A stretch of 64,000 nt of DNA, taken from NCBI GenBank assembly GCA_963681965.1, contig OY820579.1:1248001-1312000 (forward strand). Direction: 5' to 3'. The translations under genes were made by a program, and so were the position numbers. This document shows, piece by piece, positions 1 through 27,811 of this stretch; position 1 is the first letter of the stretch, and every line of letters begins with the position of its first letter. A model generated the notes under the pieces. That model was given only the letters and a program-made list of their open reading frames with translations, was not told the origin of the DNA and ran no database searches. The stretch is from a bacterium. Lineage in GTDB: Bacteria > Electryoneota > JAOADG01.

Positions 1-1
1 C

Positions 2-2597: not shown

Positions 2598-2613
2598 TGT
2601 AACGTGAGAGGAG

Positions 2614-5916: not shown

Positions 5917-8900
5917 ATGCGTTTGTCCATATCAATCTACCTAGCTATGCTCCTTATTTCACAACCACTCGCTTCCACGCTGAAACCGGGCATCGATTAT
6001 ATGCCGAATCTCATCGAATTCAAGCTGACAGCCGAATTCAATCGCACAGTCAATAAAGCATCCGACGGGCATATTAACTATCCCACCGGCAATAAATCAA
6101 TCGATGTAATGATGCAGAAATACAACATTAAACAACTAAAACCGATCTTTACATTCGATCCGATTTCACTCAAAAGCGAGCACTTTTGGGCACTAGGAAT
6201 GGATCGGTACTACCTCTTCCGCAGCGGTCTCAGCAAACCATCGGCATTCGGTTCCGAGACGGTACTGGATGTGTCGACTGCGCTCAAATCATTGACATCG
6301 TTGATAGAAGAAGCCGATCCGGCTGCGATCTATCAACCCTGCTACACGCCAAACGATTGGACGATTCAAAGCAACCCGTACAGTCCTGGCGATCCCATGT
6401 GGGGACTCGATTCGATGCATTGTCCTCAGGCTTGGGATTACTGGCGGGGCGACCCGAACAGTAACCCAGTCTTGGTGGTAACGATCGATACCGGTGTTGA
6501 CCTTTACCATGAGGACTTGGTAGCAAACTTCAAAGTCAATACCGCAGAAGACCTGAATCACAATGGTCGCTACGATGAAAATGATCTCAACGGGATCGAT
6601 GACGACGGCAATGGTTTTGTGGATGATGTTGTCGGTTACGATTTTGTCGATAACGACACATATTGGCTTTCCGGTGTCCAAAATGTACCGGGAGAAGATT
6701 ATTCGCCGCGCGATGGCACTCCGATGGATTTCAATGGTCATGGTACACACGTGTGCGGTACGGTTGCCGCTCATACCGACAATACTGTTGGTGTCCCATC
6801 TGCATCTTACAGTGTCAATACGATCGCGGTTCGAGCTGCACTTGCATGTCGACTTAACGGTACGAATAATCTGACCGCACGCTTCGTTAGCTCGGATGTA
6901 GCACCAGCAATTCAGTATGCCGTCAATCGCGGAGCTCGTGTCCTGAGTTTGAGCTTTGGTGGCAGCTCAACATCGCATGCCCAGGAAGTCGCCTTAGGGT
7001 ATGCTCATCATCAAGGAAATTGTCTCCCGTTTGCTGCTGCTGGTAACGATAACACATCAAATTCAACTTATCCGGCGGATTATCCCGAAGTTTTGAAGGT
7101 CGCGGCATTATCGTTTGGTAATGTCAAAGCCGACTATTCGAATTATAGCTCGAACGTTGCTGTTTGTGCCCCCGGCGATGTAATCCTGTCAACCACAGTG
7201 CGTAATTCTTACAATGTAAACAACGGGTATGGGCTATCGTCCGGTACTTCGATGGCGTGTCCGAATGCGGCGGCGGTGGCAGGTTTCATTCTTTCGATGG
7301 TTCCCACTTTAGACCACGATACACTTGGGGTCGTGATGATGCGAACCGGACACGACCCATCGCAATGGAACAACTCCAGTTACAACGGAATGCTGGGAAA
7401 GTTAGTTGATGCAGCGGCTGCGATTCGAAGTTTACGTCCTCTCGGACTAACTTCACCGGTTTATGATTCGCTGACGCTTACGGTCGGGAACGCACTTGTG
7501 CTCCAGTGGACTTCGGTACCAAGCATCACTACAACCCGCGTCGAAATCAATCGCAACTACCCGACCGGCGCATGGCAAGTCATCTGCGGGAATGCACCCA
7601 ATACCGGGTCTGCGGTCTGGATCGTCGATGGGATCGCCGGCGACCACATGCGATTTCGAGTGCTTGATGCCGATAACCCGAGCCAGAATGGCGATACGAC
7701 CCGAGTCGACTCGCGCGTCATGGCGCAGCGGCAGTTGCCGTTGATTGAAAACTTTTCTCTTCACTCATTTCCACCACCGGGATGGACTATCGTACCGACA
7801 CCCGAGATTTTATTATCGGGTTGGAGCCGGTACGATGGCAACAATGGAAATAACGGCGTCGCCAGTTGTCCGACCAACTACTCGGTGCGACGAAGATACG
7901 AACTGTGGTCACAGAGTTTCTCAACGATAGGTGTTAGTGCCGTTACCGTAAGGTTCAAACTATCCTGTTCGCTCTCCGGAAATGATCAGTTGGATGACTC
8001 GTTGATGATCGCGTATGAAGCTAATCCGCAATTGCCTTATCAGGTCGCCGCGGTTAAGCGTACACGTGGCACCGGCGACGAATGGATTTTCTATGGTACC
8101 GGAGGCGATGTCAATACTCCCGCGAGTTCGGATTGGGGAACGTGGGAAGTTCAACTGCCGAATTTCGCAACGCAATCAAGTTCGGTTCGCATCGGACTAC
8201 TCGGGACCAATTACCGAACCGACCGACCGAATTTCTTTATCGACGATTTTGAAGTTCAACCGTTCGCGCTGGTCGTCGGACCTTCAATGTGTTGGTATAC
8301 TGCGCTTACCGGTAACTCGGTTTCGCTAGCATGGGACAATCTATCGAACAACGAAACCGGCTTTCTAGTGCAGCGTTCGACGGATGGTGTGAATTTTGTT
8401 ACGCGTGGAACAACGAATCCGAATGTAACATCGTTCACGGACAACACGCTCATACCGGGTACCATGTATTACTATCGTGTTTTTGCGCTGAGTGGTACGA
8501 TGCAATCGACGCGTTCGGCGGCGTTAACACTCACAAGCCCCCCGGCAATACCACTGGCACCAATTCTGGGAAATGTCGGTACGACGATGCTCGAGTTGAC
8601 ACCCCGTAATGCAGCGAACAATGCTAACAATCCCGGTATCGGATACATGATTTATGTGCTGGATGATCAAAATAACTGGTGGGTACAAGGTGATAATACG
8701 CTCGGCTATACTCCCGTTGCACTACAACTTTCGGAATGGGGAACGCGGAGGATTACGGGCTTGACGCCCGGACATACAGTGCAAATTGGTGTCCATGCTA
8801 CAACTACCGATCATGTCTCATCAGCAATGTCGCCGACCGTTACCGCACAGCTTGTCACCGCGTGGAACCCGCCCTTAGTGCAGAACTTTGGGACAACCGA

Positions 8901-12766: not shown

Positions 12767-13426
12767 ATGATGAAATCCAGTAAAGACATGGGCTCCAATA
12801 AAAAAAACTGCGCAAACAAGCCCGCGCTACCGGTTTCAGTTTCGAATACGCAAGGAAGCGTAAATGAGAAGCAGACGTTGAATGGTGCTGTGATCTGTGG
12901 TGTGGTTTCGAAGAAAGGAAGCCCATGCAGCCGACCAGCAATGGCGAACGGACGTTGCCGTTTTCATGGTGGAAAGTTGATCGGTGCAATCATGGTTCGA
13001 CCTGGAAATCGCAATGCTGTCAAGCATGGTGCATTTCTGCCTGATATCCAAGACGAGCGCGAACAGAATGCGTTCGATCTGTTCCTGTCTGATCTGTACG
13101 AAGTCTTCCCGGATTTGAACAAAGCAAGCGATCTCCGGCATGCGCAGCTCGCTGCCATTACCTATATCCGTTTGCTACGTGCGCTTTGGGGCGAAGCGTC
13201 AAGCTCTACGATAGACGATCTATCCCGAGCGTTCACGCGGCACCTGGCGGCAATACGGGTAAACCGTGACCAACGAGTGAGCGAGACCGATGCCCACGCA
13301 GGTCCGAGATCGCCTGCCGAATATGCGGTCGAGATCATTCAGCAGGTTCGGATGTATTCGAAGGGGGGCGCTGCTCCAGTTTCAATCGATCCAGTTTTAC
13401 TCGGGTTGGACGTAGAAAATGACTGA
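12767..13426 (+). CDS. HGGxSTG-type / terminase small subunit-like phage protein
   Basis: CG...KKGSPC...GRCRFHGGK and GNRNAVKHG motifs. Confidence 0.6.
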   Translation: MMKSSKDMGSNKKNCANKPALPVSVSNTQGSVNEKQTLNGAVICGVVSKKGSPCSRPAMANGRCRFHGGKLIGAIMVRPGNRNAVKHGAFLPDIQDEREQNAFDLFLSDLYEVFPDLNKASDLRHAQLAAITYIRLLRALWGEASSSTIDDLSRAFTRHLAAIRVNRDQRVSETDAHAGPRSPAEYAVEIIQQVRMYSKGGAAPVSIDPVLLGLDVEND

Positions 13427-14105
13427 GATGCTTCAGGGGCTAAAGTGTCATAATCCTATCGCTTACGTTTTCAAAGCGATAGGATTGAATGATTCTAATC
13501 AGGATTATAATAATCTGGATTATAATCTTTCAGCACACAAGCGTGCCAGGTGGGCTGGTCAGAATAGCCAAATCAAGTGTCGCCAGAAAAACGGAAAATA
13601 CCCATCGCAGAACATCGCAAATTCGCTTCGAGAAATCGAGACTTACGATCTAACTCGTGAATTTGTCAGCACTGAATCGGTATTCTACGATTGTGATCCG
13701 CTCGGGTTGGCAGCTGCGTCGTCGTGGAGTTCTGTTCAAATTCCAACGTGTGTCTGCTGTGTCCAGAACGTGTCAGAAGGTCGCTCTGATCGAAAATACA
13801 AAGACTTAGCAGATTTGCTGGTATGTCACTACGGCGAATGTGTTCAAACGGCAAATGTGGAATATGGAAATAATTATGGATCGAACAGCACAACTCGCGA
13901 TAAATCAAAGAGTTGGCGATCTGTTCGAATATGTTCTGTCACCGCAGTGAAGCTTCGTCGGCCCAAGGTCTGGATCGTTCAATCGCAACCACAAAACGCA
14001 ACCGGCAAAGCTCGAAGCGAAAAACGCAGGGTAGCCCCAAAGGGGGTGTCTGGCACGGTATTAGGGTCGAAAATCCGAGTCACCAGTGAAACTCAGGTTC
14101 GAAAC

Positions 14106-14330
14106 TCAGTGGGCGAGCTTCTTCAGCGTTTCCTCATGCTCTTTCCTCAGCTGTTTCGTTGCGCTGGCAACCCTTTTATCGTGGCTCCGATGCACTGGTC
14201 TGATTATCAGCTCGGTTCCATTGGTGGTTACATCCAACACAGAATCTTCGTCGATTTTCAGTATTTCGAGGATGGGACGCTCAATCACAAGTACCAAGTT
14301 ATCTTCGATGGAAACCAATCGCTTACGCAT
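14106..14330 (-). CDS. AbrB/MazE/SpoVT-family antitoxin-like protein
   Basis: MRKRLVSIEDNLVLVIERPILEILKID...LIIRPV...HEETLKKLA, typical of Doc-associated AbrB antitoxins. Confidence 0.7.
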   Translation of the reverse strand: MRKRLVSIEDNLVLVIERPILEILKIDEDSVLDVTTNGTELIIRPVHRSHDKRVASATKQLRKEHEETLKKLAH

Positions 14331-14402
14331 GTGAAGCACCTTCTTAGACTTGCGGATTGCTCTTTTCACCTTTGGTATAGTCCTTATCAATTGTTACTGG
14401 AG

Positions 14403-15614
14403 TTACAGCGCCCCAAAAGGCACAGCCAGATTTCCATTCCCCAATGGTATGATCTCATTACCGAGATGAATCACATATCCGGGCTGCGCTTGATCACCGT
14501 AAATACTGCGAAAGGTCTCGATACCCTTTGCCATTTCTGGTCGCGGGGTAGAAGTCTGTTTAATCTCTATCGGAATCAGTTTCATTCCGGATTCGATCAC
14601 GAGGTCCACTTCGTTCCCTTCCGATGTGCGCCAGAAATAAAGACGCGGCTCGAAACCTCGATGAGCATACCGGCGGTAGATTTCGCAAACGACTGCCGTT
14701 TCGACAATCGCTCCACTCATCACATTGCTCTTGGCTTGTTCTTCAGTCTGGAGTCCAGCAAGATGGCAGAGCAGTCCGGTATCGAGGACAAAAAGCTTAG
14801 GACTTTTAACCAAGCGTTTTCCAGCATTCCTGAAGTAAGGTGGCAGGATCAGAACTTGGTAGGTGGCTACCAAAATCGAAAGCCATGCCTTGATCGTGTT
14901 CAGCGATACACCGAGTTCTTTGGAGATTTCGGACAAGTTCGTGAGCTGAGAACTCCGAAGCATGATGGTTTGCAGGAAAACTTGAAACAGGTGCAGGTCA
15001 CCCAGTTGCCTGAGTATTCGGACATCCCGCTCGAGGTACGTCTGGACATAACTGTCGAACCAGAGTGCAGCATTGGCGCGTGGTCGCAAAGCAATGTCGG
15101 GATAACCACCACGCAGGATCGACCGCCAGTTGTCATTCGGAATGACTTGACCGGGCTTGAGTGCCTTCTTTCGCTCCCAAGGAAAAGTGTCATCTTCATC
15201 TTTGAGCAGTTCTTTTCTGGTGAAAGGAAACAGCCGAAGGATGGCGATACGACCCGCGAGACTTTCGGTGACGTGTTGCGACAACAGCAGATTTTGCGAT
15301 CCGGAGAGAAAGTACTGTCCCTTCAGAGCGCGGTTTTCATCAATCCGATTCTTGATGTCCGGGAGCAGTTCCGGAACATTTTGGATCTCATCGAAGATGA
15401 CTGGTGGCGAGTAACTGTCAAGAAAGCCAACGGGATCGTTCTTCGCGGCGACTTTATGCAATGGGGTGTCGAGGGACACGTACTTAGCGCTCGTCCCGAA
15501 CACATGCTTGAGCATGGTAGTTTTGCCAACCTGGCGCGGACCAGTCACGCTGACTGCGGGAAATTCTTCGGCAGCGCGAAGCAGTGTCGATTCCAATGTT
15601 CGGTGATAGTACAT
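14403..15614 (-). CDS. AAA+ ATPase (AAA_14) with DUF4143 / PD-(D/E)XK-like C-terminus
   Basis: GPRQVGKT, IFDEIQ, SGS, ESLAGR, GGYP, YLERD, KSPKLF.DTGL, EVDLV...PIEIK. Confidence 0.9.
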   Translation of the reverse strand: MYYHRTLESTLLRAAEEFPAVSVTGPRQVGKTTMLKHVFGTSAKYVSLDTPLHKVAAKNDPVGFLDSYSPPVIFDEIQNVPELLPDIKNRIDENRALKGQYFLSGSQNLLLSQHVTESLAGRIAILRLFPFTRKELLKDEDDTFPWERKKALKPGQVIPNDNWRSILRGGYPDIALRPRANAALWFDSYVQTYLERDVRILRQLGDLHLFQVFLQTIMLRSSQLTNLSEISKELGVSLNTIKAWLSILVATYQVLILPPYFRNAGKRLVKSPKLFVLDTGLLCHLAGLQTEEQAKSNVMSGAIVETAVVCEIYRRYAHRGFEPRLYFWRTSEGNEVDLVIESGMKLIPIEIKQTSTPRPEMAKGIETFRSIYGDQAQPGYVIHLGNEIIPLGNGNLAVPFGAL

Positions 15615-15713
15615 GGTCGTTCCTTACTCGAAAACACCTGCAATATTGCATTTGAAATGCAATTCTGCAAGTGTTTTCAGCTTGAACTCAAAATACAAAG
15701 CAGTGACAATCAC

Positions 15714-16240
15714 TTAGTTAGCGTTCGTCGTGCGGCTTTCCATCGCATCTTCCAACGACTCGTCGGTGACGTGGGCATAAATCTGCGTATGGACGATACT
15801 GCGATGCCCGAGCGCTTTCTGGACTACGAGGATATCGTGGTTCTTAGCATACAACGAAGTTGCGAAAGTGTGCCGGAGTTTGTGGGGAGTGACTTGCTTC
15901 TGGATACCTGCTCGTTTTACCCACTTCGATACAACGACTTGAAATCCCCGGGTAACCATTCGACCGTATTGCTGGTTGACGAAAAGAGCATGCATGTTGC
16001 TGTCAGGTGCGAAGTGCTTTCGTTCACCTTGGATGTATTGATCAATGGCCTCGCGTGTAATCGATGGCAGAAATTTGCGAATGGGGTTACCCCCCTTTGC
16101 TCGCTTTATGAAGAGATGTTTGTCGACAATATCTGTCAGTTCGATTTGTGCCAGTTCACCTACCCGAATTCCGGTATCGAGCAGCACTCGGATAATTGCG
16201 TAGTCCCGTTGCTGGTGAACATTGCGTGTATGATCTCGCA
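15714..16240 (-). pseudogene. Tyrosine recombinase, catalytic half only (5'-truncated)
   Basis: RDYAIIRVLLDTGIRVGEL, KGG, HKLRHTFAT, LGHRSIVHTQIY; the N-terminal core-binding domain is missing. Confidence 0.85.
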
Positions 16241-17812
16241 GACATCGAGAACAACGATACGACTCTTTCCGATAGTGATATCGATGGATTGCTTGCAGAG
16301 AACAGTAAAGCGGGAAGCTTTGTTCAAGACAACTTCAAGGGTTTGTTTTTCGCCAAGGGTGTGCATGCCGCCATTGATAATATCCGCACCAACATTGACG
16401 ATCTTCGAGGCTACAAAAAAGACATTGCACTCTTTGCACTGGCGAAAGCGTGTATCAGTGGCAAGGGGGGGTTCGGACATTTCCAGTCGTCGGTTCGGTA
16501 CGGCAAGTTCGAAGATACTCTTGCTGAGTTTACGAAGCGATTCCGTGATAACTGTGTAACGATCAATCAACTCGTGTTCGACAACAAGAAAGAAAATCGT
16601 GCAGAAAACTCTACTATCGATGAGTTGCTACCGGGTGTTAAAGTTGATCTAGCCTATTTCGATCCACCGTATGCTACTGAGTTTTCAACAACGAATTATG
16701 AGAGTTCTTATCACTTTATCGAAGGATTGATGACCTACTGGAAAGGTCTTACGATCAACGACGATAGTGCTACCCACAAATTTTTTGAAATTGAAGAACA
16801 AACTGTTACCCAGAATAGCGCTGATACATTTTTTGAAATATTCCTGAGAGGCGCACAAGGGATCAGTTGTTGGATTATCTCATACCGTGATCACGCATTT
16901 CCAAACGAAGCGAAGATCAAATCGCTCATCTCGGATTCTGGAAAAGTATCTAGGATGTTCTCGAAGGATCATTCTTACCAATTGGCTGGAAACGATCGTC
17001 ATGGTGAAGCATCGCAAGCGAAGGAACATATCTTCGTATGTGGTCCTACCGAAACCGCGATCCGTTCGCAAGCAGATTGGGAAGAGGAAGCAAAGTCGAT
17101 TTCTCAATGGCAGCCAGTGACTGCCTCGTCGATCGCTTCAACAAGCAGATTGCATTGCTCGACTATAAATGCTGACATCAAACTGGTGTCTGAAGCAGAA
17201 GATAGTATTGAGAGTCCCACCGATCCGGAGTTTGTGTTCGTTTTGACTCATGTCGGGACGAATCTAAACGGCGACAATTTTACCCGTGACGAACTGATTA
17301 AAGCTGCACCGACAGCGATTACCCGAAAAGTTGATCTCAAGCATTCGCAGGATCTCACTGACATCGTAGGTGGTATTACCGATTCCCAGTGGAAAGACGA
17401 GGATGGCGGTCTCGTTGAATGTACCGGTCGTCTCTTCGTTGCTGACAATCCGCACGCACAACTCGCCTACCGGCTCATGAAGGAAGGTATTGTTAAGCAG
17501 GTCTCGATGGAATGCCAGTATGATGCTGGTGAATGTTCGATCTGCGGCAAGAAGTTTTCATCGAAGTCCGATTACTGTATCCATCTTCGCAAATACAAAG
17601 GTGCCATCTATCAGGGTAAACCAGTATTTGAAATCCTTCGCGGTGTCGTGTTTACCGGTGTGGGATTGCTATCCGATAAAGGTGCCGACGAGCGTGCGGT
17701 TATCCGTTCCATTGCGGAAACAGGAGTCAAAATGAAAACGCAGGCATTGTCTTTTTCTGAATATTTCCTCCAGCAACAGCGTAGCATGACGCTGTGGGAC
17801 ATCGTGGGATGA
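16196..17812 (+). CDS. DNA adenine methyltransferase (D12/Dam-like, 5'-truncated) fused to phage prohead protease
   Basis: DLAYFDPPY...YHFIEGL...IISY (MTase), then NGDNF..ELIKA..VDLKH..IVG..VSMEC..CSICG..CIHL..FTGVGL...ADERA (capsid maturation protease with Zn ribbon). Confidence 0.75.
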   Translation: MRSPVAGEHCVYDLADIENNDTTLSDSDIDGLLAENSKAGSFVQDNFKGLFFAKGVHAAIDNIRTNIDDLRGYKKDIALFALAKACISGKGGFGHFQSSVRYGKFEDTLAEFTKRFRDNCVTINQLVFDNKKENRAENSTIDELLPGVKVDLAYFDPPYATEFSTTNYESSYHFIEGLMTYWKGLTINDDSATHKFFEIEEQTVTQNSADTFFEIFLRGAQGISCWIISYRDHAFPNEAKIKSLISDSGKVSRMFSKDHSYQLAGNDRHGEASQAKEHIFVCGPTETAIRSQADWEEEAKSISQWQPVTASSIASTSRLHCSTINADIKLVSEAEDSIESPTDPEFVFVLTHVGTNLNGDNFTRDELIKAAPTAITRKVDLKHSQDLTDIVGGITDSQWKDEDGGLVECTGRLFVADNPHAQLAYRLMKEGIVKQVSMECQYDAGECSICGKKFSSKSDYCIHLRKYKGAIYQGKPVFEILRGVVFTGVGLLSDKGADERAVIRSIAETGVKMKTQALSFSEYFLQQQRSMTLWDIVG

Positions 17813-18454
17813 TTGCAAAGCTATCTCAACGATCTACTAGGCAAAGTGAAGAATGAAGACCTCACCAACGACCAAGCCTTCGAACTGATGCAGAGTGGCG
17901 TTGAGCAATTTCGTTCCTCGCTGGAGGAGCTGTTTCAAAATCCAGCCGATTTACCAACTGTGGAGGCAAAGAAAATGACTGATCCAAAACCACCGGAAAT
18001 CCCTCCGGCGAGTGCGGCAGCTCCGGGAAGCGAACAGATTAAGACGCTTGAACTGGAGAATGCTGATTTGAAAAAGCGCGTCGATGAGCTATCGAAGCAA
18101 CTCGATGCACTGAAGAAAGCTGCTGCTCAAGAAAAAGCGAAGTCGAAAGCAACGGAACTAGTGAAGCGATTCGAACTCAAAGGTCGGACGTTTGCCAATG
18201 ATACCGAGCGTGAAGTGGAGATTGAACGATTGGCAGCCCTATCTGATGAAGCGCTAGCGGCAGTGGAAATCACTGTTTCGGCAATGCCTGATCTTTCCGC
18301 CCAGGCAAATCGCCAGCCAATACTCAAGACCGATGCTGGTGTAAAGCCGGTCAATGTTGCCGACACGGCGCCCGGCGACGAACTCAAAACTGGTCTCAAA
18401 GACGGCTTAATGGCGGCTTACAAACAGAATCGCGGCGAAGCGGTCACGAACTGA
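17813..18454 (+). CDS. Probable capsid scaffolding protein (coiled coil)
   Basis: In frame with the protease after one TGA; Pro-rich linker, heptad-like LELENADLKKRVDELSKQLDALKK; internal GGAGG-ATG at about 17962-17977; lies before decoration gene and MCP. Confidence 0.6.
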   Translation: MQSYLNDLLGKVKNEDLTNDQAFELMQSGVEQFRSSLEELFQNPADLPTVEAKKMTDPKPPEIPPASAAAPGSEQIKTLELENADLKKRVDELSKQLDALKKAAAQEKAKSKATELVKRFELKGRTFANDTEREVEIERLAALSDEALAAVEITVSAMPDLSAQANRQPILKTDAGVKPVNVADTAPGDELKTGLKDGLMAAYKQNRGEAVTN

Positions 18455-18467
18455 GAAGGAGATCTCG

Positions 18468-18887
18468 ATGGCAAATTACCTGAATGCCGCCTTGCCTGGC
18501 ATCGCATACGGCAATGGCGAACTGCAGGGTCCGGGAAATCCCGGACAAATTGTAAAACTGGTCGGTAATGATCTGTTCGAAGTGGTCAGTAATGCGAATG
18601 ACGAACCGTTCGGTTTGCTGGGTCGCACAAATCGGCTCAAGAGCGGACCAATCCCGACATCCACCGACAAAGTACTAGCGGTTGTATTCGTTGGCGATGG
18701 AATCTACGAAACGGATAACTTTTCCGGGTCGATCACTGCCGGCAATACACTGACATTCGATGCATCGCTCGGCAATCTGAAAGGTGCCGGAGCCGGTGCA
18801 AAGATAATTGGTCGTGCGCTGTCAGTTTCAGACGGCATGCTCAAATTTCAATGGACGAATCACGGGACTAGCGTCCCCTCGACGTAA
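18468..18887 (+). CDS. Probable head decoration/capsid cement protein
   Basis: AAGGAG RBS; 139 aa, Gly-rich (G.YETD, IIGRALSV); lies between scaffold and MCP. Confidence 0.55.
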   Translation: MANYLNAALPGIAYGNGELQGPGNPGQIVKLVGNDLFEVVSNANDEPFGLLGRTNRLKSGPIPTSTDKVLAVVFVGDGIYETDNFSGSITAGNTLTFDASLGNLKGAGAGAKIIGRALSVSDGMLKFQWTNHGTSVPST

Positions 18888-18897
18888 GGAGGTTTCA

Positions 18898-19764
18898 ATG
18901 ATTAGCACCGAAGTGAACTCTCGCGAATTCATGGAGAAAATGGGTCAATTGATGACCCGTTCTCTGGAAACCCCGGAAGGAATGCATGCAATGGCGGAAG
19001 CGATTGCTCCTCCGATTGAAATGGAAATCAATCGCCGGATCATCACACCGTTATTGCTTACTGAACACCCATTACCGCCTGGACAACCGGCAAAGTACCA
19101 GAAAGTACCCGGTATCAAAGCACATTGGATCGCCACTGGTGGAATCGTTACATCTACCGATGTCGCTGATTTCGATGAAGTGGAATTTCCAATTGACCGC
19201 ATTCCGGCAAATCCGATGGTTGATGTTTCGGCATTGCAGAGTGGTAACGTCGGTACACTCACCGATCACCAGAATAAAGCGGCAAACGCAATCCGGAAGG
19301 AAGTCGACAAGCGAACAATGTCGCTATTTTCGGCTTCAGTTTCGCAATCGAATACCATCACCATTACCAGTGGTGGCAAGCTGACCGAAACCGCCTTCTA
19401 TCAGGCAATTGCCAAAGTTGAAGACCTCGAGCTGAATCCGAAATTTATTCTAATGCGTGGTGCGAGAATGTCAGATTTGAAAAGCTGGTCGAATCTTGAT
19501 CCGCAGACCAACCGCGAATTGTTCGAAAAGGGCGTTGTCAAGACAATGGGTGGAGCAGGTTTAATCAATACTGCTGCTGCATCGTTATCGGAAGTTATCA
19601 TCGTTCCGGACACTGAGATCGGTAAATACGCCATTCGAAGTGCAATCACTGCTGAACCCTACAAGGATGTTCCACGATTCAAAGTCGGTTGGGTGGTTTG
19701 GATGGAATGTGCGCTCGGTATTACCCGTCCCGATCTGTTGTTCAAAATCGTAATCAACGGGTGA
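18898..19764 (+). CDS. Major capsid protein (HK97 fold)
   Basis: AAGGAGG RBS before ATG 18898; AIAPPI...LLTEHPLPPG.P.KY, AANAIRKEVD, C-terminal GWVVWMECALGITRP; reminiscent of Bxz1-type MCPs (from memory, not searched). Confidence 0.75.
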   Translation: MISTEVNSREFMEKMGQLMTRSLETPEGMHAMAEAIAPPIEMEINRRIITPLLLTEHPLPPGQPAKYQKVPGIKAHWIATGGIVTSTDVADFDEVEFPIDRIPANPMVDVSALQSGNVGTLTDHQNKAANAIRKEVDKRTMSLFSASVSQSNTITITSGGKLTETAFYQAIAKVEDLELNPKFILMRGARMSDLKSWSNLDPQTNRELFEKGVVKTMGGAGLINTAAASLSEVIIVPDTEIGKYAIRSAITAEPYKDVPRFKVGWVVWMECALGITRPDLLFKIVING

Positions 19765-19768
19765 TGAT

Positions 19769-19963
19769 ATGGCAACACTGAAGAATATTTCGGGAATGAC
19801 ACTAGCATTTCCGTCAGGAGTTATCCTCGCACCCGATGCAACACTCTCAGTAAGTAAACCAAATGTGGAACAGAAGGAAGCGATGAGTCTCGGCTTACTA
19901 GTGGAAGCGAAGGGGTTGGAACCTGCAGGCGATTGCGAGAATGGAAAGCAGCCGAATCCATGA
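19769..19963 (+). CDS. Small phage hypothetical protein
   Basis: Tightly packed after the MCP; ATGA overlap with the next gene. Confidence 0.55.
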   Translation: MATLKNISGMTLAFPSGVILAPDATLSVSKPNVEQKEAMSLGLLVEAKGLEPAGDCENGKQPNP

Positions 19964-20388
19964 CGTTAGGTTCTGAACTCACCGCCAAGTTGCGGCTCGA
20001 CTATCACGATACGCTGAGCGATCCGGAACACGATCTATCGGATGAACAGCTTTGTCGGTGTATCGAGCGCGGATTGTTGTTTCTGAATCGAGATTTCGCT
20101 GCGGTCTACACAGTATGTGGCGATGGCATTGATCCGGCGCTCTCACAGGAACATCGGGAAATGTTACTTCTGCGGTCACTTGCACTAGTGTGCGAACTGA
20201 TGGCAGCGAAATCATCACGTCATGTTTCATTCTCTTCCGGTGATAAATCGGTGACCCATGGCGATGAAGCAAGGATCTGGCTCGCACTGGGTGAACGCAG
20301 TATGGCACGATACGATGCCGCAGTGGAAGTTTGGACGGGTGGAGTCGGTAGCCTGCAGCCCTTGCTGTATGGTGATTCGGAGTCATGA
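19960..20388 (+). CDS. Probable head-tail adaptor/connector protein
   Basis: LRLDYHD...LSDEQL..IE, SFSSGDKSVT motif typical of gp15/gp6-like adaptors; gene position. Confidence 0.55.
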   Translation: MTLGSELTAKLRLDYHDTLSDPEHDLSDEQLCRCIERGLLFLNRDFAAVYTVCGDGIDPALSQEHREMLLLRSLALVCELMAAKSSRHVSFSSGDKSVTHGDEARIWLALGERSMARYDAAVEVWTGGVGSLQPLLYGDSES

Positions 20389-20759
20389 CAACCTTTCTGA
20401 CCATCGCACAAGCGAATCAGATTCGTGCCGATATGAAAGCGCTTATTGAAAGTAGTGGCGAATCGGCTACACGTTCGCGGCAAGTCTTAACACCGGTATT
20501 GTACGGTGGGCAACCTATCGGTGAATCGGTCAATCAGATCACTTTTCCAGTGTTGCGTAAGCCGCTCCCGGAAAACGATCTGATAAAAAATGGCAATGGA
20601 ATGGTGTTGTCGGTATTGCCGGATGTGGATGTTCAGGAGATTGATCTCGTGACAGTGGATGGTGTGCACTATGGTATCGCAGAGATCACCGAATTCAATT
20701 TGTTCGGTGTAGTGACACACCGGGAGATCAAGCTCGAACCGTACCGGAGTCATACGTGA
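20385..20759 (+). CDS. Probable head closure (stopper) protein
   Basis: DVQEIDLVTVDGVHY.I pattern; ATGA coupling; gene position. Confidence 0.5.
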   Translation: MTTFLTIAQANQIRADMKALIESSGESATRSRQVLTPVLYGGQPIGESVNQITFPVLRKPLPENDLIKNGNGMVLSVLPDVDVQEIDLVTVDGVHYGIAEITEFNLFGVVTHREIKLEPYRSHT

Positions 20760-21229
20760 AAATTGTCATCGACACACGTGCGTTTGCAAAGAGCAAAGCT
20801 GTGCTTCGGAAGCATCCGTTGTTGCTACAAGCGGCATTACAAAGCGCGATGGTAACGCTTGCCGAGGATGTTCGCAAGGTTGCAGTAACGAAACTGCGCG
20901 ATAGTGGTGCAGTCGATTCCGGTTTACTGATGAACAGTATTTCAGTAGTGCCGGAAAGTAAACGCAAACTGATCGTTGGAACCAATGTCGCTTATGCAGC
21001 TGCGGTGGAATTTGGTGCACGTGGTCACTGGCTCCATATCGATTCAGTTCCCGGTATGCGGCTCTGGCTTAAGCGTCATGGAATTTCGGGGTGGAATTCG
21101 CGGAAGTTTTTCTATGTCGCACCCAAACCGCGTCCGTACTTCGAACCGGCATTTGTACATGGAAAAATGATTGCACCGAAAGTAATCGAAGTGGCACTTG
21201 GTAATGTGTTACTGGGACTCCATTCGTGA
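20756..21229 (+). CDS. HK97 gp10-like tail-completion protein
   Basis: VDSGLLMNSI, VGTNVAYAAAVEFG, PRPYFEPA. Confidence 0.75.
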   Translation: MKIVIDTRAFAKSKAVLRKHPLLLQAALQSAMVTLAEDVRKVAVTKLRDSGAVDSGLLMNSISVVPESKRKLIVGTNVAYAAAVEFGARGHWLHIDSVPGMRLWLKRHGISGWNSRKFFYVAPKPRPYFEPAFVHGKMIAPKVIEVALGNVLLGLHS

Positions 21230-21744
21230 AGCTGGAACTCGCATTAGCGCAGTGGATTACGAGTAATCATCCAGAGCTGCATGTGTTCAAGGATGATCTC
21301 GCGCATACCGCCGCCGGGTATCCTTATCCGGTGATGCTGATAACCGAGATCGATGCCAGGCGAAGACAGATCGGGACCGGACCGTACGATGCAGTCGATG
21401 TTGTTGTTGAACGGAAATGGTGGAACGTCGAGCGAACGCTGCGACTTACGGTACGCTCACCGGCGGACAAGCAGTGCGATGGTAACACGATTGTTCATGC
21501 ATTGATCGAACAGATCGATAACACATTGCAGTCACTGTTTCGTATCGGGTCGGTGGATTTGCCACTGGGAGAGGATACGGTACATGTCGCAATGGCGAAT
21601 CATGCTGGTTTTCATGAGCTACCTGCCATCACTGACAAGTTGCCATTCGTGTATCAACGAGCATTATCGTGGCGGTTTCAGGAAGTTACGAGTCAGGAAT
21701 TTGAAATGGTGCCGCTGCTGATTCCCAGTGGAGTATTGCATTAG
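21226..21744 (+). CDS. Probable tail terminator-like protein
   Basis: YPYPVMLI...LRLTVRS pattern; follows gp10-like gene. Confidence 0.45.
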   Translation: MKLELALAQWITSNHPELHVFKDDLAHTAAGYPYPVMLITEIDARRRQIGTGPYDAVDVVVERKWWNVERTLRLTVRSPADKQCDGNTIVHALIEQIDNTLQSLFRIGSVDLPLGEDTVHVAMANHAGFHELPAITDKLPFVYQRALSWRFQEVTSQEFEMVPLLIPSGVLH

Positions 21745-21746
21745 CT

Positions 21747-21968
21747 GTGGATGTCAATTCGCTGGTAACGGGTAGTGGCAAAACTTTATCACAATTGGCG
21801 GAGAGTGAACGACAAACGCTGAGTATCACCAAACAGATCGAGCGAGAACAGGTAACGCGGGATTTATCCGAACAAATCTATACTCTACAACGTGCCATCG
21901 CTGAAGCGCCGACACAGGAGCAGCTCGATGCAATCGCCAGCACGATTAGTACGGGAGCTGCACTCTGA
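21747..21968 (+). CDS. Phage hypothetical protein
   Basis: Coupled (TGATG) to the next gene; helical. Confidence 0.45.
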   Translation: MDVNSLVTGSGKTLSQLAESERQTLSITKQIEREQVTRDLSEQIYTLQRAIAEAPTQEQLDAIASTISTGAAL

Positions 21969-22591
21969 TGTCCGATACCATTCTGAATTTATCGGGACTG
22001 CCACCTCAGCGCGCAGCGACGCTATACGATCTGCTGGCACGTACTCGTCGCGATAGTAATTGGCAATCGATTCCGGTGCGGGCAGTATTAGTACCAGACG
22101 ATGGAACGCTCACCATCAATGGTCTTCGGGATAGTCGGTATGCGTTGCTGTTTTCAGATCCGACTGCAATGTCGTTTTCCCGGTTCAAGCTTGAAGTTGG
22201 CGATAAATCAAAGTACCGGACGATCTATCTGAGTGATCCAATTCCGACACCAGTATTGCAATCCGTAGTTGTTTCCGTTCGGCTGAATGAAATCATCGCC
22301 CGTTTGAATTGGTCGATCCAAAGTGATGCCGCAGTTGTCACATTCGATGTTTACCGAAAGTGTGTGAACGAATCAGTGTTTACTCTCGCGCATACAGTTG
22401 CCGATCGGACTTCGAGGCATTGTGAATTGACCGGACTACAAGCCGAGAGTCGGTTTCACTGGTACATCGTGGCACGTGGAGCGGGACAATTTGTTCGAAA
22501 GTCGAACACTGTAGAAATGATAACTCCGGTTTCGCCGGTCGCCGAACCGAATCTGATCGTGAATGGAAATTTTGAGACTGCCGTCTGGTAG
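21968..22591 (+). CDS. Phage structural protein with FN3-like domain
   Basis: LNWS...FDVYRK...LTGLQAESRFHWYIVA...SN; ends in NLIVNGNFETAVW. Confidence 0.6.
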   Translation: MSDTILNLSGLPPQRAATLYDLLARTRRDSNWQSIPVRAVLVPDDGTLTINGLRDSRYALLFSDPTAMSFSRFKLEVGDKSKYRTIYLSDPIPTPVLQSVVVSVRLNEIIARLNWSIQSDAAVVTFDVYRKCVNESVFTLAHTVADRTSRHCELTGLQAESRFHWYIVARGAGQFVRKSNTVEMITPVSPVAEPNLIVNGNFETAVW

Positions 22592-22609
22592 TCAGGAGAA
22601 TGTTGTATT

Positions 22610-25225
22610 ATGGCACAACCGATTAAAATCTCGACCGTCGAAAAACTGTTCGGCAACCAGTCAATGGAAATCAATCCCGATGGTACGTCTGCAACGGTGC
22701 TAACTGACTTAACCAAGACAAATTATGTGAATCTGCAAGGTCTGACTGCGGTTACGGTTTCTTGCTACATCAACGCTAAGGCTTACTCCAGTGGTTACAT
22801 CGTAGCCCGGGCAGTATTCTTCGATATCAATGATGCGCAACTTGGTACACATGACTGGGTAACACTTTCTGCGGTCACAACTGGATTTTCACGGTTTTAC
22901 CAGACCTATTATCTGTCACAATCGCCGGTTCCTGCCAATACGGTTAAAATGAAATTGCAGTTTGGTGGCATCCAGAAAACCGGGGTTAATCCGAACTTCG
23001 ATACATTCATCGATGGCGTAAAAGTTGAGCAGGGAGACAAGCTCACTGCTTATACCGACTATACGCTGAAAGAGAATGATTCGCTTGATCTGGTTGGCGA
23101 TGGTGTCATTTTCAAAAAAATAACCGGTGTCAGCAACAGTAATCAGGTGACGGCAGATTCGATCGAAACTGCAGCGGTTACTAGCTTAAAGATCGCCGAT
23201 GGTGCGATAAGTACGTCAAAAATTGCCACTGGTGCTGTTACAACTAACGAATTGGGTGCAAATGCAGTTATAACGTCTAAACTCGCAAGCGGAGCGGTAA
23301 CTAGCAACGAGTTGTCAGCTAACGCTGTCATTGATACGAAAATCGCTAGCGGTGCAGTAACGACTGCAAAAATTGCTTCAGGAGCTGTGAATTATTCAAA
23401 GTTGGCTGCGAATTCCGTCATTACGTCTAAAATTAGTGCTGCAGCAGTTGATAGCTCCAAAATAGCTATTGGTGCTGTCGGAATTAACCAAATTGCAGCG
23501 AATGCCGTAGATAATACGAAGCTCGCCGATAATGCCGTGACTAGTTCGAAACTGCAGGATGCGGTAGTCACAAATTCGAAGATTCAATTCGGTACGGTGG
23601 CCGAGGATCGACTCAACAATTCTCTCACCACGAAGCTCTGCAAACTTCAATCTGATGGTACCTTCAAGGGCGATGTCTATTCCAATGATGGTGTAGTCAA
23701 GCTGATCGATTCTGCAACAGGTATGGTAACTTCTGCTTTACAGACGAGCAGTGGCGCTTCCCTAAATGATCGAGTCGAAGCGATCTATACAGATGTTTAC
23801 AACAAAGATGTAGCATTGCCGATTCTTGACAGGAATGTCAATAAATCCTTAGTACATGGAACTTTTAAAACTTATCGCCCTGGTACGACAACTGCAGATC
23901 TGAATATCGGTGTAATCGGTGACTCATGGGATGATTTATTTGAGCTGACCCGCGCGGATAACGGTGAGGATTTACTCGATGAAACCGGAGCGCCAATCAA
24001 AGTAGTAGCGCTCTGGGGAAAGCAAAGTAAGGTGAGTTCAATTATTGCTGGTAATGATCCCAATGGAGTCGGAGCCGGATGGTCTCGCACCGATGGCGAT
24101 GGCACGACCAACTCGACTTGGGTAGAACTCTCGGCTCTTCCAACTGCAAATTTCAACATCGTTTATTCTATCAGAAAAAAACTGTCAACTCTGCAAACGC
24201 GAGACCTAGTCACCGTCGGTGTGATCAAGGGGGGACAATCCGATGCGAACATTACCGGCGCACTGCATGATCTGAAAGGTACGACCAACTGGAATGATGC
24301 GGTCCCAAGTGGTAGAAAACTTACCGATCTGACCACAACGAAAGATGCCGGGGCGACTTATATCATCGCCGATGGTAAGGTAAAGGGAAGCTCGATTGTC
24401 GCCGGTGAAGTAGGCACTACCCAGCTTGCCGACAATGCGGTAACCACCAGCAAGATTCCCGATAACGCTATAAGCACCCAGAAAATTAATTCTGGATCGG
24501 TTACAGGTGATAAAATCGCACCTACAACCATCACAGCTTCGAACATAGCTAATTCAACCATAACCGGAACGCAAATTGCCTCCAGTACAATTACCGGTAG
24601 TAACATTGCTTCTGCGACAGTTACACAATCGAATCTCGCAAATAACTCTGTTGGTTCGGCTCAAATTGCCGATGCCAATATTACCAACGAAAAAATCGCG
24701 AATCTCGCTGTCGATTCAACAAAACTTACTAATGGGGCCGTGACGAATGAAAAGATTGGTGCCAATGCTGTTGATTCCTCTAAGCTCGCCAATGGCGCCG
24801 TTGGAACCACTCAACTTACCAATCTAGCGGTTGATAATTCGAAGTTGGCTGACGCGAGTGTTATCACCAGCAAGATCGCGAATCTCGCAGTCGATTCGAC
24901 CAAGATCGCTGATAGTAGTGTTACCACTGTGAAGATTGCGGCAAATGCTGTCGACGCTACTAAAATCGGTTCTGGTGCGGTTGGAACCACACAGCTAGCC
25001 AATAGCGCAGTCGATTCCACTAAGCTTGCAAACAATGCAGTTGTTGCTGGAAAAATTGCGACCAACGCTGTTGTCAATGGTAATATCGCCGATGGTGCAA
25101 TTACCGATACAAAAATTTCCGACGGATCGGTAACGACTGCCAAGCTCAATGCCACTGCCCTTTCAGTATTCGATGGTCGCAATATGGTGCAGAATCCATC
25201 ATTTGAATCGGGGGCATGGATCTGA
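22610..25225 (+). CDS. Phage fibre-like protein with CBM-like N-domain and 10-aa repeats
   Basis: AGGAG RBS; many AV(T/D)xxK(I/L)Axx decapeptide repeats; ends in NMVQNPSFESGAWI. Confidence 0.7.
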   Translation: MAQPIKISTVEKLFGNQSMEINPDGTSATVLTDLTKTNYVNLQGLTAVTVSCYINAKAYSSGYIVARAVFFDINDAQLGTHDWVTLSAVTTGFSRFYQTYYLSQSPVPANTVKMKLQFGGIQKTGVNPNFDTFIDGVKVEQGDKLTAYTDYTLKENDSLDLVGDGVIFKKITGVSNSNQVTADSIETAAVTSLKIADGAISTSKIATGAVTTNELGANAVITSKLASGAVTSNELSANAVIDTKIASGAVTTAKIASGAVNYSKLAANSVITSKISAAAVDSSKIAIGAVGINQIAANAVDNTKLADNAVTSSKLQDAVVTNSKIQFGTVAEDRLNNSLTTKLCKLQSDGTFKGDVYSNDGVVKLIDSATGMVTSALQTSSGASLNDRVEAIYTDVYNKDVALPILDRNVNKSLVHGTFKTYRPGTTTADLNIGVIGDSWDDLFELTRADNGEDLLDETGAPIKVVALWGKQSKVSSIIAGNDPNGVGAGWSRTDGDGTTNSTWVELSALPTANFNIVYSIRKKLSTLQTRDLVTVGVIKGGQSDANITGALHDLKGTTNWNDAVPSGRKLTDLTTTKDAGATYIIADGKVKGSSIVAGEVGTTQLADNAVTTSKIPDNAISTQKINSGSVTGDKIAPTTITASNIANSTITGTQIASSTITGSNIASATVTQSNLANNSVGSAQIADANITNEKIANLAVDSTKLTNGAVTNEKIGANAVDSSKLANGAVGTTQLTNLAVDNSKLADASVITSKIANLAVDSTKIADSSVTTVKIAANAVDATKIGSGAVGTTQLANSAVDSTKLANNAVVAGKIATNAVVNGNIADGAITDTKISDGSVTTAKLNATALSVFDGRNMVQNPSFESGAWI
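23150..23620 (+). repeat. Degenerate 30-bp (10-aa) tandem repeat block 1
   Basis: AVTSLKIADG AISTSKIATG AVTTNELGAN AVITSKLASG... Confidence 0.85.
24390..25150 (+). repeat. Degenerate 30-bp (10-aa) tandem repeat block 2
   Basis: AVTTSKIPDN AISTQKINSG ... AVDSTKLANN AVVAGKIATN. Confidence 0.85.
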
Positions 25226-25971
25226 TGAGCTATTTCGATACTGATAATTCTCATTCTGTATTCGGTGGTTCTTCACTGCGGCTGGTCGGCGACTCGACCA
25301 TGCCGAATGTCATCACTGGACACAGCAATTCCATAACAGTTATTAGCCGGGATTCGATAGTGATATCCGCATATGTTTTCGCACCGGCAATTAGTGCTGG
25401 CACAACCTTTACCGGTCGAATCGAATACATCGACCAGAACGGAAGTTCACTGGGAAGTGGGGATTGGCTTAAACTGACAGTTTCAAACAGCCAGTTTACT
25501 CGGTACTATGCGATCAAAGATATTACCACATTTCCCAATGAAACCGATGCAATTCAGCTATCATTTTCTCTGACCGAAGCTGCAGGGAAGCCGACAGGTA
25601 CGGTATATGTCGATTGTGTGAAATGCGAGTACGGAAACAAGCTGACCGGGTATTCCGAATCGGTGTTTTATGAAGAAATCTGCCAGCACATCGGTGGCTT
25701 CGGGATTCCGAAGATCGGAACATCGCAAATCGAAAACGATTCTATCACCAGTGAAAAGCTGGCAATCGACTTTACCAGTCTTGAGAAAATAACCGATACT
25801 GCAATACAGTTCGATGGTTCAACACTGACTACTAATAAGCAGTTAAGCATTTGCAATGGATTGGCAGCTAATGGTAAACCCGGCATTACACAGACAATCG
25901 AAGTTCCGGATGCTGGTGGCGGGATATACACCATCGCTATTACCGATGGCATCATTACGAGCATCACATGA
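25216..25971 (+). CDS. Phage fibre/tip protein with CBM-like domain
   Basis: VFGGSSLRL...ISAYV...YVDCVKCEYGNKLTGY is paralogous to the N-domain of 22610..25225; start may be 25225 (TGATG). Confidence 0.6.
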   Translation: MDLMSYFDTDNSHSVFGGSSLRLVGDSTMPNVITGHSNSITVISRDSIVISAYVFAPAISAGTTFTGRIEYIDQNGSSLGSGDWLKLTVSNSQFTRYYAIKDITTFPNETDAIQLSFSLTEAAGKPTGTVYVDCVKCEYGNKLTGYSESVFYEEICQHIGGFGIPKIGTSQIENDSITSEKLAIDFTSLEKITDTAIQFDGSTLTTNKQLSICNGLAANGKPGITQTIEVPDAGGGIYTIAITDGIITSIT

Positions 25972-26255
25972 GCGAACCGGAACACATCGAGCATTCGCTG
26001 TTAGAGCCACCATATTCCTGCCAGTACCACTTGGCAAAGATGGAACAGGTATCGCAGCAACTAGCCGATCTTCGCGATGCGGTGAAAGAACTTAACTCGT
26101 CGATCAAAGGAAATGGGAAAGAAGGTATCATCGTAAAAGTGGATCGTAATACCAATTTCCGGTTGTTGATGACGAAGCTGCTCTGGTTTTTGTTTACACC
26201 ATTGTATGGTGGATTGATCGCATTTGTTTTTCAACATTTTGTGGTACATCACTGA
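25968..26255 (+). CDS. Phage membrane protein (coiled coil plus C-terminal TM), lysis-cassette associated
   Basis: IKGNGKEGI..KV motif then a TM helix; precedes the holin. Confidence 0.55.
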   Translation: MSEPEHIEHSLLEPPYSCQYHLAKMEQVSQQLADLRDAVKELNSSIKGNGKEGIIVKVDRNTNFRLLMTKLLWFLFTPLYGGLIAFVFQHFVVHH

Positions 26256-26262
26256 GGTAAGT

Positions 26263-26679
26263 ATGAGCCTTTTAACTGCTGTTCCGATTGTAGGACAGAT
26301 CATCGAGAAAGCCGCCGGAATCATCGACAAGTGGGTCCAGGATAAAGATCTTGCTGCAAAATTGAATTACGATTTGCAGGCGCAGATGTTGTCGCTCGAC
26401 TATAGTGCACTCGAAAAGGAAATCGATGCCAAGGCGAAAGTGTTGGTAGCTGAGGTACAGGGTCAGAGTTGGTTACAACGCAACTGGCGACCATTGCTCA
26501 TGCTTGTATTTACCTACATTGTTGCGCACAACTATGTGATTGCACCGATCTTCAGTATTACCTCAGTGCCGGTGCCGGAACAGATGTGGACGCTCTTGAA
26601 CATCGGTATTGGCGGTTACATCGTCGGTCGCAGCGCCGAGAAAATTGCATCGGTCGTGAAAAAGGAAGATTCGAAATGA
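26263..26679 (+). CDS. 3TM holin (gene-transfer-release type)
   Basis: GAGG RBS; IIDKWVQDKD, SWLQRNWRP, GIGGYIVGRSAEK. Confidence 0.8.
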   Translation: MSLLTAVPIVGQIIEKAAGIIDKWVQDKDLAAKLNYDLQAQMLSLDYSALEKEIDAKAKVLVAEVQGQSWLQRNWRPLLMLVFTYIVAHNYVIAPIFSITSVPVPEQMWTLLNIGIGGYIVGRSAEKIASVVKKEDSK

Positions 26680-27242
26680 CACTTAATGATATTGAATTTG
26701 TACCCGCAGCTGTTGGAAATTATTCTTCGCGTCCTCGTGGTATAGTGATCGATACTATCGTCATTCATTACACGGCGAACGGCAGTATCGAGGATACCAT
26801 CGCATGGTTCCAGAATCCGGTGAATAAAGTATCGGCGCATTATGTGATTGGTCTCGATGGTCGCATTGTTCGGATGGTGCAAGACGCGAAAAAAGCTTAC
26901 CATGCCGGTGTATCACAGTGGAACGGTCGTACCGGCGTCAATGAATTTTCCATCGGTATCGAACTTGTCAACTGGGGTCCAGTCAAATTGCGCAATGGTG
27001 CGTTTTTCGCATGGCCAAGTGATTATTCACATCCTTATAAAGGGGATATGCCTGTGCTTATTGAGTCTGAATACTGGCAACCCTACCCGGAACCGCAGCT
27101 AATTGCGCTCGAGCAACTGGTACAACTCCTCTGCGAAGAGTACCCAATTCAGTGGGTGGTAGGGCACAATGAGATAGCACCCGAACGCAAGATTGATCCA
27201 GGTCCAGCATTCCCGTGGGAGCGTTTTCGCTTTAAAGTTTGA
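26676..27242 (+). CDS. N-acetylmuramoyl-L-alanine amidase (Amidase_2) endolysin
   Basis: IVIHYT, VSAHYVI, AYHAG, SIGIE, GHNEIAPERKIDPG; ATGA overlap with the holin. Confidence 0.9.
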   Translation: MTLNDIEFVPAAVGNYSSRPRGIVIDTIVIHYTANGSIEDTIAWFQNPVNKVSAHYVIGLDGRIVRMVQDAKKAYHAGVSQWNGRTGVNEFSIGIELVNWGPVKLRNGAFFAWPSDYSHPYKGDMPVLIESEYWQPYPEPQLIALEQLVQLLCEEYPIQWVVGHNEIAPERKIDPGPAFPWERFRFKV

Positions 27243-27811
27243 CACAATCGAAACATTTAACATTCTTCAATTTGAACTCCAACACTCTCATTTTTCCCTC
27301 TAGATTTGGTGAAGATTTACTTCGAATGTCCTAAGTAGGTATACATTGGTATTATTCCCTTTTCTCCAGCATCGATGCCAAGTCGATTGGCAGAACTGCT
27401 CATTTTGTGGTCTCCAATTTTCGAAAACATCGACTTGCTGGATCGCTTTGCTGCCCAAAGTCGATCAATATTTTGCTGACACCTAATTTTTATGTGGCAT
27501 ACAATTACTCGTGTAATGAAAGAAATTTACTAAATATCAACGCCTAAATTTCACTAATACTATTTTCAAAACAATGTGAGAAATTGATAGCTCTAGGAAG
27601 ATTCTGCAGAATATTTTATTTAGTATTGATAGCGGATGTCAATGATCTTACTTTATGACTAATTACAACGGATACATACTTGGGCGGCTTGCAGTGATTA
27701 AGATCGATGTAACCGAAAATCTTACTGGTTTACTGAGTATTCTGCGCCCATGCTTGAAGTGCTGGGCGTTTTCTTGTATGCTGAATTAGGTTAGAGGGAA
27801 GTGGAGGAAAG

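Follow-up and report, generated by a model that had tools for sequence, protein, structure and literature searches.

In only a few phages is it known what keeps the separate proteins of long, multi-gene tail fibres together. In chaperone-usher pili (Fim and Pap) and in type V pili, each subunit is a sandwich that lacks one element, and this element is supplied by the terminal extension of a neighbouring subunit. For a phage, a report on Tuc2009 (mBio 2016; PMC4742702) describes a 25-residue C-terminal hairpin of BppU that completes one of the beta-sheets of BppA domain 2 to give a titin-like composite. With this solved composite domain, the principle is established for phage host-recognition devices (PMC4742702). 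Here we describe the tail-fibre module of a prophage in 64,000 nucleotides (nt) of an Electryoneota genome (assembly GCA_963681965.1, contig OY820579.1, positions 1,248,001 to 1,312,000), a stretch that we call the window. Three adjacent genes of the module, g1, g2 and g3, lie on the plus strand and divide a domain resembling a carbohydrate-binding module (CBM) at the same point across two successive gene boundaries. We predict from sequence and structure models that completion of the split domain in trans holds the g1-g2-g3 chain together, and we give this reading a probability of about 0.65. If so, the joint would be a variant of the composite-domain principle of Tuc2009, with another fold and another donated element.

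The likeness to the BppU-BppA tripod of Tuc2009 is that a C-terminal extension completes a beta-sandwich of the next gene's product and so joins both proteins (PMC4742702). The composite described there is the small titin-like domain 2 of BppA and the donated element is a hairpin (PMC4742702), whereas here the jelly roll of CBM type would itself form the composite, with its N-terminal segment as the donated element. A second difference is that the joint occurs here twice in series along a long fibre. The CBM-like domain 1 of BppA resembles our model of the g2 N-terminal domain (VIA-align Z 11.4, 5e7t_B), and we found no sequence relation of the window proteins to BppU or BppA. The likeness to pili is that one domain element is absent and that the base would carry a plug only, the middle subunit both plug and socket, and the tip a socket only. 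The pilus fold is Ig-like, whereas the fold here is a CBM-type jelly roll whose missing element is N-terminal and would come from the preceding protein's C-terminus. The module would form a phage virion fibre and not a secreted pilus, and it is not a member of the pilus families. Genes for a chaperone, an usher or a protease are absent from the locus, where the neighbours are baseplate, fibre and lysis genes.

Single-chain relatives of the fold are also known. CBM4/9/16/22 modules (2zew/3oea, 2y64) and the phage domains of Douge gp20 (8zdp), the phi812 baseplate (9euf chain 8) and Kp7 gp52 (7xyc) share the fold of the g2 domain model with Z values of 12-16. They also share the N-terminal N..N..FE motif; in them the domain is a single chain, whereas here its first segment comes from the preceding gene. 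In contractile sheaths of phage tails and injection systems, one report describes terminal strands that are donated to a neighbour's sheet and lock the subunits (PMC13266070). This exchange is a homo-oligomeric mesh, with no split CBM and no fibre joint between different gene products. We found no split CBM or comparable fibre joint described in the open-access literature.

The genes, tails and junctions of the module are located in the window as follows; the roles of adaptor, shaft and terminal subunit, and the terms plug and socket, are predictions.

21968..22591, plus strand: g1, a 207-amino-acid (aa) adaptor with a plug only, made up of an N-terminal region, a weak fn3-like region and a C-terminal tail
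22550..22588, plus strand: tail segment of g1 (plug), the most conserved part of g1
22589..22609, plus strand: junction 1, TAG and a spacer of 18 nt that contains the ribosome-binding site AGGAG, followed by the ATG at 22610
22610..25225, plus strand: g2, an 871-aa tail-fibre shaft with socket and plug (phrog_892 tail fiber protein, E 1e-69)
22610..23080, plus strand: N-terminal CBM4/16/22-like beta-sandwich of g2 without its first segment (socket)
25181..25222, plus strand: tail of g2, NMVQNPSFESGAWI (plug for g3)
25223..25227, plus strand: junction 2, a TGATG stop-start overlap (four loci aligned; a fifth, L012, alike from its list of open reading frames, ORFs)
25225..25971, plus strand: g3, a 248-aa terminal subunit with a socket only, then a C-terminal region (251 aa if read from the ATG at 25216)
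25225..25680, plus strand: N-terminal CBM-like domain of g3 without its first segment (socket), homologous to the g2 N-terminal domain

The coordinates and residues given for the three genes in an earlier note on this DNA were correct, with the start of g3 amended to 25225. The g3 start at 25225 (MSYFDT...) is more likely than that at 25216 because a second copy of the module in the same genome has GTG in place of the ATG at 25216, and the ATG at 25225, within TGATG, is present in all loci. The g1 product ends in NLIVNGNFETAVW before its TAG, and the g2 product in NMVQNPSFESGAWI before its TGA.

We propose that an ancestral CBM4/16/22-like fibre domain was cut at two successive gene boundaries, right after its N-terminal segment N-x-x-x-N-x-x-F-E-x-x-x-W. 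The three proteins would be made separately by translationally coupled genes, with g1 as the adaptor (plug only), g2 as the shaft (socket and plug) and g3 as the tip (socket only). Each plug would lie into the socket of the next protein, where the full sandwich would be rebuilt from two chains, and the joints would be non-covalent, in the order baseplate-proximal protein, g1, g2, g3. We infer docking in trans, this chain order and the stoichiometry as the most likely reading of the observations below. In jelly-roll CBMs the N-terminal segment adjoins the last strand of the sandwich. If that layout holds here, a docked plug would bring the end of one subunit to the place where the next shaft leaves its domain, and the fibre would therefore be continuous.

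The N-terminal domains of g2 and g3 (first ~155 residues) are homologous (27% identity over 157 columns, E 1e-16, BLASTP), in agreement with the earlier claim that both genes begin with the remainder of one domain. We modelled this domain with AlphaFold2 as a read-through of the junction-1 region, using an alignment of 19 family members. The predicted local distance difference test (pLDDT) exceeded 90 across the g2 N-terminal domain. Foldseek matched the model to the central fibre protein gp20 of mycobacteriophage Douge (E 3.7e-7) and to CBM16 and CBM4-2 modules (E 3e-6 to 7e-6). Structural superposition with VIA-align gave Z 15.7 against Douge gp20 (root-mean-square deviation, rmsd, 2.7-2.8; 152-153 residues aligned) and Z 13.9 against CBM16 3oea_A (rmsd 2.9; 142 aligned). 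A profile of the family searched against PDB sequences also found Douge gp20 (E 1.9e-6) and CBM16 2zew_A (E 3e-4). At E up to 1, Pfam CBM_4_9 (PF02018) matched neither the products of g1, g2 and g3 nor the read-through domain; of the 19 family members it matched 4 at E up to 0.1, the best at 2e-5. By these models the fold of the g2 and g3 N-terminal domains is a CBM4/16/22-like beta-sandwich jelly roll. Carbohydrate binding by the two domains is putative, as a shared fold shows no function.

The profile alignment to CBM16 2zew_A opens at the N-terminal VNMVSNPGFEDG of that protein (residues 5 onward), at profile position 3. This alignment indicates that the N-x-x-x-N-x-x-F-E segment belongs to the N-terminus of a CBM-type module. 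The motif had been taken for the first strand of a CBM4/9-like sandwich: its place as the N-terminal segment of such modules stands (2zew_A, E 3e-4), but DSSP scores no regular strand there, the segment being extended and unassigned both in the read-through model and in a model of an unsplit relative.

To assess relatives of the domain, we searched 1.84 billion representatives with a two-domain profile in HMMER, in a length-blind manner. This gave 32 proteins at E up to 1e-3, of which 25 were analysed; P0006, P0016, P0020, P0021, P0026, P0031 and P0032 were left out as matches to a short profile part only (3 to 17 stretches). Eight of the 25 have the split form, with the domain starting at residue 1-15 (P0001-P0005, P0007, P0015 and P0029), and one, P0012, is a fragment that begins within the motif. 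The remaining 16 are unsplit, with an internal domain, and in all 16 N-x-x-x-(N/D)-x-x-(F/Y)-E...W stands immediately before the domain in the same chain. In the unsplit forms, 12-13 residues lie between this W and the conserved FG, compared to 13 from the Met to the FG in g2; because these distances match, the cut is placed directly behind the W. AlphaFold2 modelled the segment of one unsplit relative with a pLDDT of 85-95. The top five matches over the whole domain, P0001-P0005 (E 2.5e-80 to 8e-21), are split forms, with the match starting at residue 1-11. The g2-like P0003 (...NLVQNPSFESGAWV) and P0004 (...NLVQGGSFENGVW) likewise end at the motif. Single continuous ORFs, which would have spoken against an arrangement of separate subunits, occur among far relatives only, at E 8e-11 or weaker. 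In a group of proteins similar to the unsplit P0018 (P0009-P0011, P0019, P0023 and P0027), a shared N-terminal region is repeated and the C-terminal ...KGFYQGGTT is conserved.

Homologous loci keep the split, a check that the earlier note had proposed. Junction 1 is kept in 5/5 loci (window, L005, L006, L007 and L016) and junction 2 in 5/5 (window, L005, L008, L007 and L012). L005 is a second prophage of the same genome with the same three genes. L006, L008 and L016 belong to one genome of the same genus, which has the module on two contigs and a truncated third copy, L016. L012, in which junction 2 is kept, is from the genome of a different genus within the family. The most distant locus, L007, comes from an unrelated assembly with 68.5% G+C compared to 46% in the window, and has 35% identity and the same gene order: a 721-aa protein, a g1-like gene ending in STNLQRGGSFEVEAW, an 875-aa g2-like gene ending in NLVINGSFETSAWI and a 328-aa g3-like gene. 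In L016 (453..704) the g2-like gene ends after ~65 conserved residues, beside a gene that resembles a restriction-modification methylase by eye; L016 is probably a decayed prophage end.

Both kinds of tail were conserved. Database homologs of g1 were exactly 207 aa long in 11 of 11 cases, and with the L007 protein included, 12/12 terminate at the W. No other stretch of g1 is as well conserved as the tail, and N195, L196, G200, F202, E203 and W207 are invariant in the 12 sequences. Longer, fused g1 forms were searched for and none were found, a result that the search tool rates as weak evidence. The g2-type tail is also present in L005, L008, L012, L007, P0003 and P0004. At 10/10 junctions, plug and socket lie in adjacent, translationally coupled genes. 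The ratio of non-synonymous to synonymous substitution rates (dN/dS) between the two copies in the genome was 0.26 for g1, 0.064 for g2 and 0.10 for g3. In the last 20 codons, g1 differed from the second copy by 6 synonymous and 1 non-synonymous changes, and g2 by 5 and 2. Purifying selection acts on the three genes as well as on the tails.

We also asked how often the motif occurs in the genome (4.24 Mb). The strict form N[LMIV][IVLQ]x[NG]xxFE was found six times among 27,351 stop-to-stop frames of at least 60 aa, and four of the six are the g1 and g2 tails of the two prophages, each 4-5 residues before the stop. By these counts the pattern is not chance; the earlier note had called two random lesions at the same domain position unlikely. 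Overall, the split is almost certainly genuine and conserved.

Whether the tails complete the sockets was addressed with a complex prediction for the g3 N-terminal domain (160 aa, 8-row alignment) and the last 40 residues of g2 (8-row alignment). The score was 0.48, compared to 0.00 for the best of three controls, which is graded as weak support. The runs agreed in at least 59% of contacts, with a partner pLDDT of at least 50. In the benchmark, the mark was reached by 58/80 solved complexes and 2/110 mismatched pairs; 7 of those 80 solved complexes and both passing mismatches reached it at a score of 0.60 or below. For the read-through model, VIA-align against CBM16 paired model residues 2..167 with chain residues -1..144 (first and last aligned residues only), a range that fits placement of the modelled tail at the position of the CBM's own N-terminus.

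Several points weigh against completion in trans. Passes at such a weak score are more often wrong than right unless the pairing is likely beforehand. In the single-chain read-through model the tail had a pLDDT of 60-66, and the unnatural 8-residue linker was below 50. Because the socket is modelled at high confidence regardless of where the tail is placed, the models cannot show that the socket needs the tail. DSSP assigned no strand to the segment. The independent lineages are few, namely the window-like clade, the high-G+C clade and P0007. Finally, no tail-tube, tape-measure or baseplate genes precede the fibre module in the window element (12767..21744, compared to 1..7322 of L005), and the second prophage has baseplate hub and wedge genes at the equivalent place; because the window element is without tail-tube and baseplate genes, its copy of the module may not put a fibre on the virion of that element. 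The suggestion that each C-terminal peptide completes the fold of the next subunit is thus partly supported, by the anatomy, by conservation and, weakly, by the modelling.

The strongest competitor accepts a real and conserved split but holds that the N-terminal domains are self-sufficient, with the tails binding a chaperone or another virion protein or persisting through overlapping signals. The contrast in pLDDT between socket (>90) and tail, the weak complex score and the missing strand, in the unsplit relative as well, are all what it would lead one to expect. However, the tail is exactly the piece that 16/16 unsplit relatives hold in cis, modelled there with high confidence. It is also the most conserved part of g1 and changes mostly at synonymous sites, and plugs and sockets sit in neighbouring coupled genes at every junction examined. 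We therefore regard self-sufficient domains as unlikely and completion in trans as the preferred reading.

The module is mosaic. Fibre and lysis genes share 80% DNA identity between two elements of this genome with different upstream genes (window 21723..27243). Position 21723, where the likeness to the second prophage sets in, falls within the last part of an unrelated 172-aa ORF. This mosaicism, together with the truncated third copy in the related genome, is compatible with boundaries that lie inside a conserved domain mainly as a crossover site for swapping downstream fibre cassettes, with complementation as a by-product. The observed breakpoint at 21723 is at neither split junction, however, and the tails are conserved at the protein level, with mostly synonymous change. 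As the main explanation a crossover site is very unlikely; it would still need the split proteins to assemble, and so it complements completion in trans and does not replace it.

The genes could instead be recoded into one polypeptide with two intact CBM-like domains, if ribosomes read through the TAG of junction 1 and shifted by -1 at junction 2. This alternative had been raised from the window, where junction 1 is in frame and junction 2 is in the -1 frame. The -1 relation and the TGATG overlap at junction 2 are kept in all five loci, and a -1 shift in the last g2 codons would give ~14 residues from W to FG, near the 12-13 of the unsplit relatives. We observed that g1 and g2 are in frame in one of five loci, the window. 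The junction-1 spacers measure 18, 17, 17, 14 and 8 nt. Four loci stop with TAG and L006 with TGA, and a Shine-Dalgarno-like site (AGGAG/GGAGG) is kept before the g2 ATG at every junction 1. The spacer has diverged more than its coding flanks and carries an indel. Because spacer length, stop and frame vary while the Shine-Dalgarno site is kept, read-through is excluded at junction 1. At junction 2, we saw by eye no slippery heptamer X XXY YYZ before the stop in four sequences. The window contains no suppressor tRNA, its sole tRNA being tRNA-Met. TGATG is an ordinary stop-start coupling overlap that also links an upstream ORF, g0, to g1. Recoding thus failed to hold up and is highly improbable. 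The start signals reported for g2 (AGGAG before its ATG) and g3 (TGATG) were both found as described.

Broken genes or an assembly error, to which the lack of tail genes in a possibly defective window element might point, have practically no chance of being the explanation and are ruled out by the conservation of both cuts in five loci of four genomes, including the distant high-G+C one, with dN/dS of 0.06-0.26 and intact start signals.

The tail-fibre identity of g2 is based on its PHROG family match and on the baseplate wedge genes (phrog_6, E 2e-69) that precede the module in the second prophage. Besides phrog_892 (E 1e-69), g2 matched 16 further PHROGs, of which 8 are tail families; phmmer found no match of g2 to PDB sequences. 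No Pfam or PHROG family matched g3, the 706-aa protein upstream of the module in the second prophage, or g1, except fn3 in g1 at a Pfam E of 0.0075, which is below the cut-off. The repeat unit of g2 is roughly AVxxxKIAxx (10 residues) and occurs in two blocks on either side of a non-repetitive centre. These blocks and the ORF upstream of g1 are placed as follows.

21747..21968, plus strand: g0, a 73-aa ORF with a GTG start, equal to the end (73 residues) of the 706-aa baseplate-proximal fibre protein in the second prophage
23102..23644, plus strand: decapeptide-repeat block 1 of g2 (~aa 165-345), with self-identity peaks of 0.33-0.36 at lags 10, 20 and 30
24332..25159, plus strand: decapeptide-repeat block 2 of g2 (~aa 575-850), with self-identity peaks of 0.35-0.38 at lags 10, 20 and 30

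The 706-aa protein that g0 matches precedes g1 in L005, L006 and L007; g0 may serve as a minimal anchor or may be what remains of that protein. ATGA links g3 to the gene that follows. Because stop-start overlaps join g0 to g1 and g3 to the next gene as well, the whole module is translationally coupled.

The window element encodes a major head protein (18895..19761; phrog_2522, E 3.5e-57) and has a gene for Neck1/tail completion (20756..21226). The window copy may derive from a deletion, or it may be a satellite that encodes a capsid and has fibres of its own. Just upstream of the phage-like region lies a 1618-aa protein (5917..10773) in which fn3 repeats accompany a subtilase domain (Peptidase_S8, E 3.9e-34). 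A 1046-aa ORF without a Pfam or PHROG match (13419..16559) overlaps a DNA methyltransferase ORF (16196..17812; phrog_27806, E 6e-162) by ~360 nt. The methyltransferase may be split or frameshifted, because the ORF at 17813..18451 matches the C-terminal part of phrog_27806 too.

The family is rare. Of 79 genomes of the host phylum, 3 were found to have it, that of the window included. The N-terminal region of g2 retrieved only itself and P0003 from a word-indexed database, and a tblastn search with the g2 N-terminal domain gave no match at E 1e-3 among 50,697 deposited phage genomes. Protein-based scans of IMG/VR with g3 and g1 as single sequences and with a 10-row alignment (A4) gave no relatives. 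Narrow DNA patterns of motif plus stop in IMG/VR were followed by a downstream match to the N-terminal domain in 0/24 and 0/8 stretches. A metagenome scan with alignment A4 gave one locus, L009, which is unsplit and lies in an unrelated contig. There, the unsplit P0018 (469 aa, 2368..3777) is on a small virus-like metagenome contig and adjoins a large ORF that resembles a DNA polymerase by eye.

The two tail types differ consistently, with NLI[VI]NGNFE in g1-type and N[LM]VQNPSFE in g2-type tails. It is conceivable, if decidedly unlikely, that the joint is a programmable assembly code in which these differences set the pairing of plug and socket. The g2 protein would then add to itself head to tail, as in a pilus, and give fibres of variable length between a g1 base and a g3 tip. 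Each sandwich would be complete, and perhaps able to bind glycans, only after joining, so that every joint would be an assembly-gated lectin.

If completion in trans is true, it would explain how the segments of such a fibre come together in the correct sequence, why translation of their genes is coupled, and how whole distal cassettes can be exchanged between phages. It would also offer a portable plug of 13-14 residues, with its socket, for engineering new receptor-binding tips.

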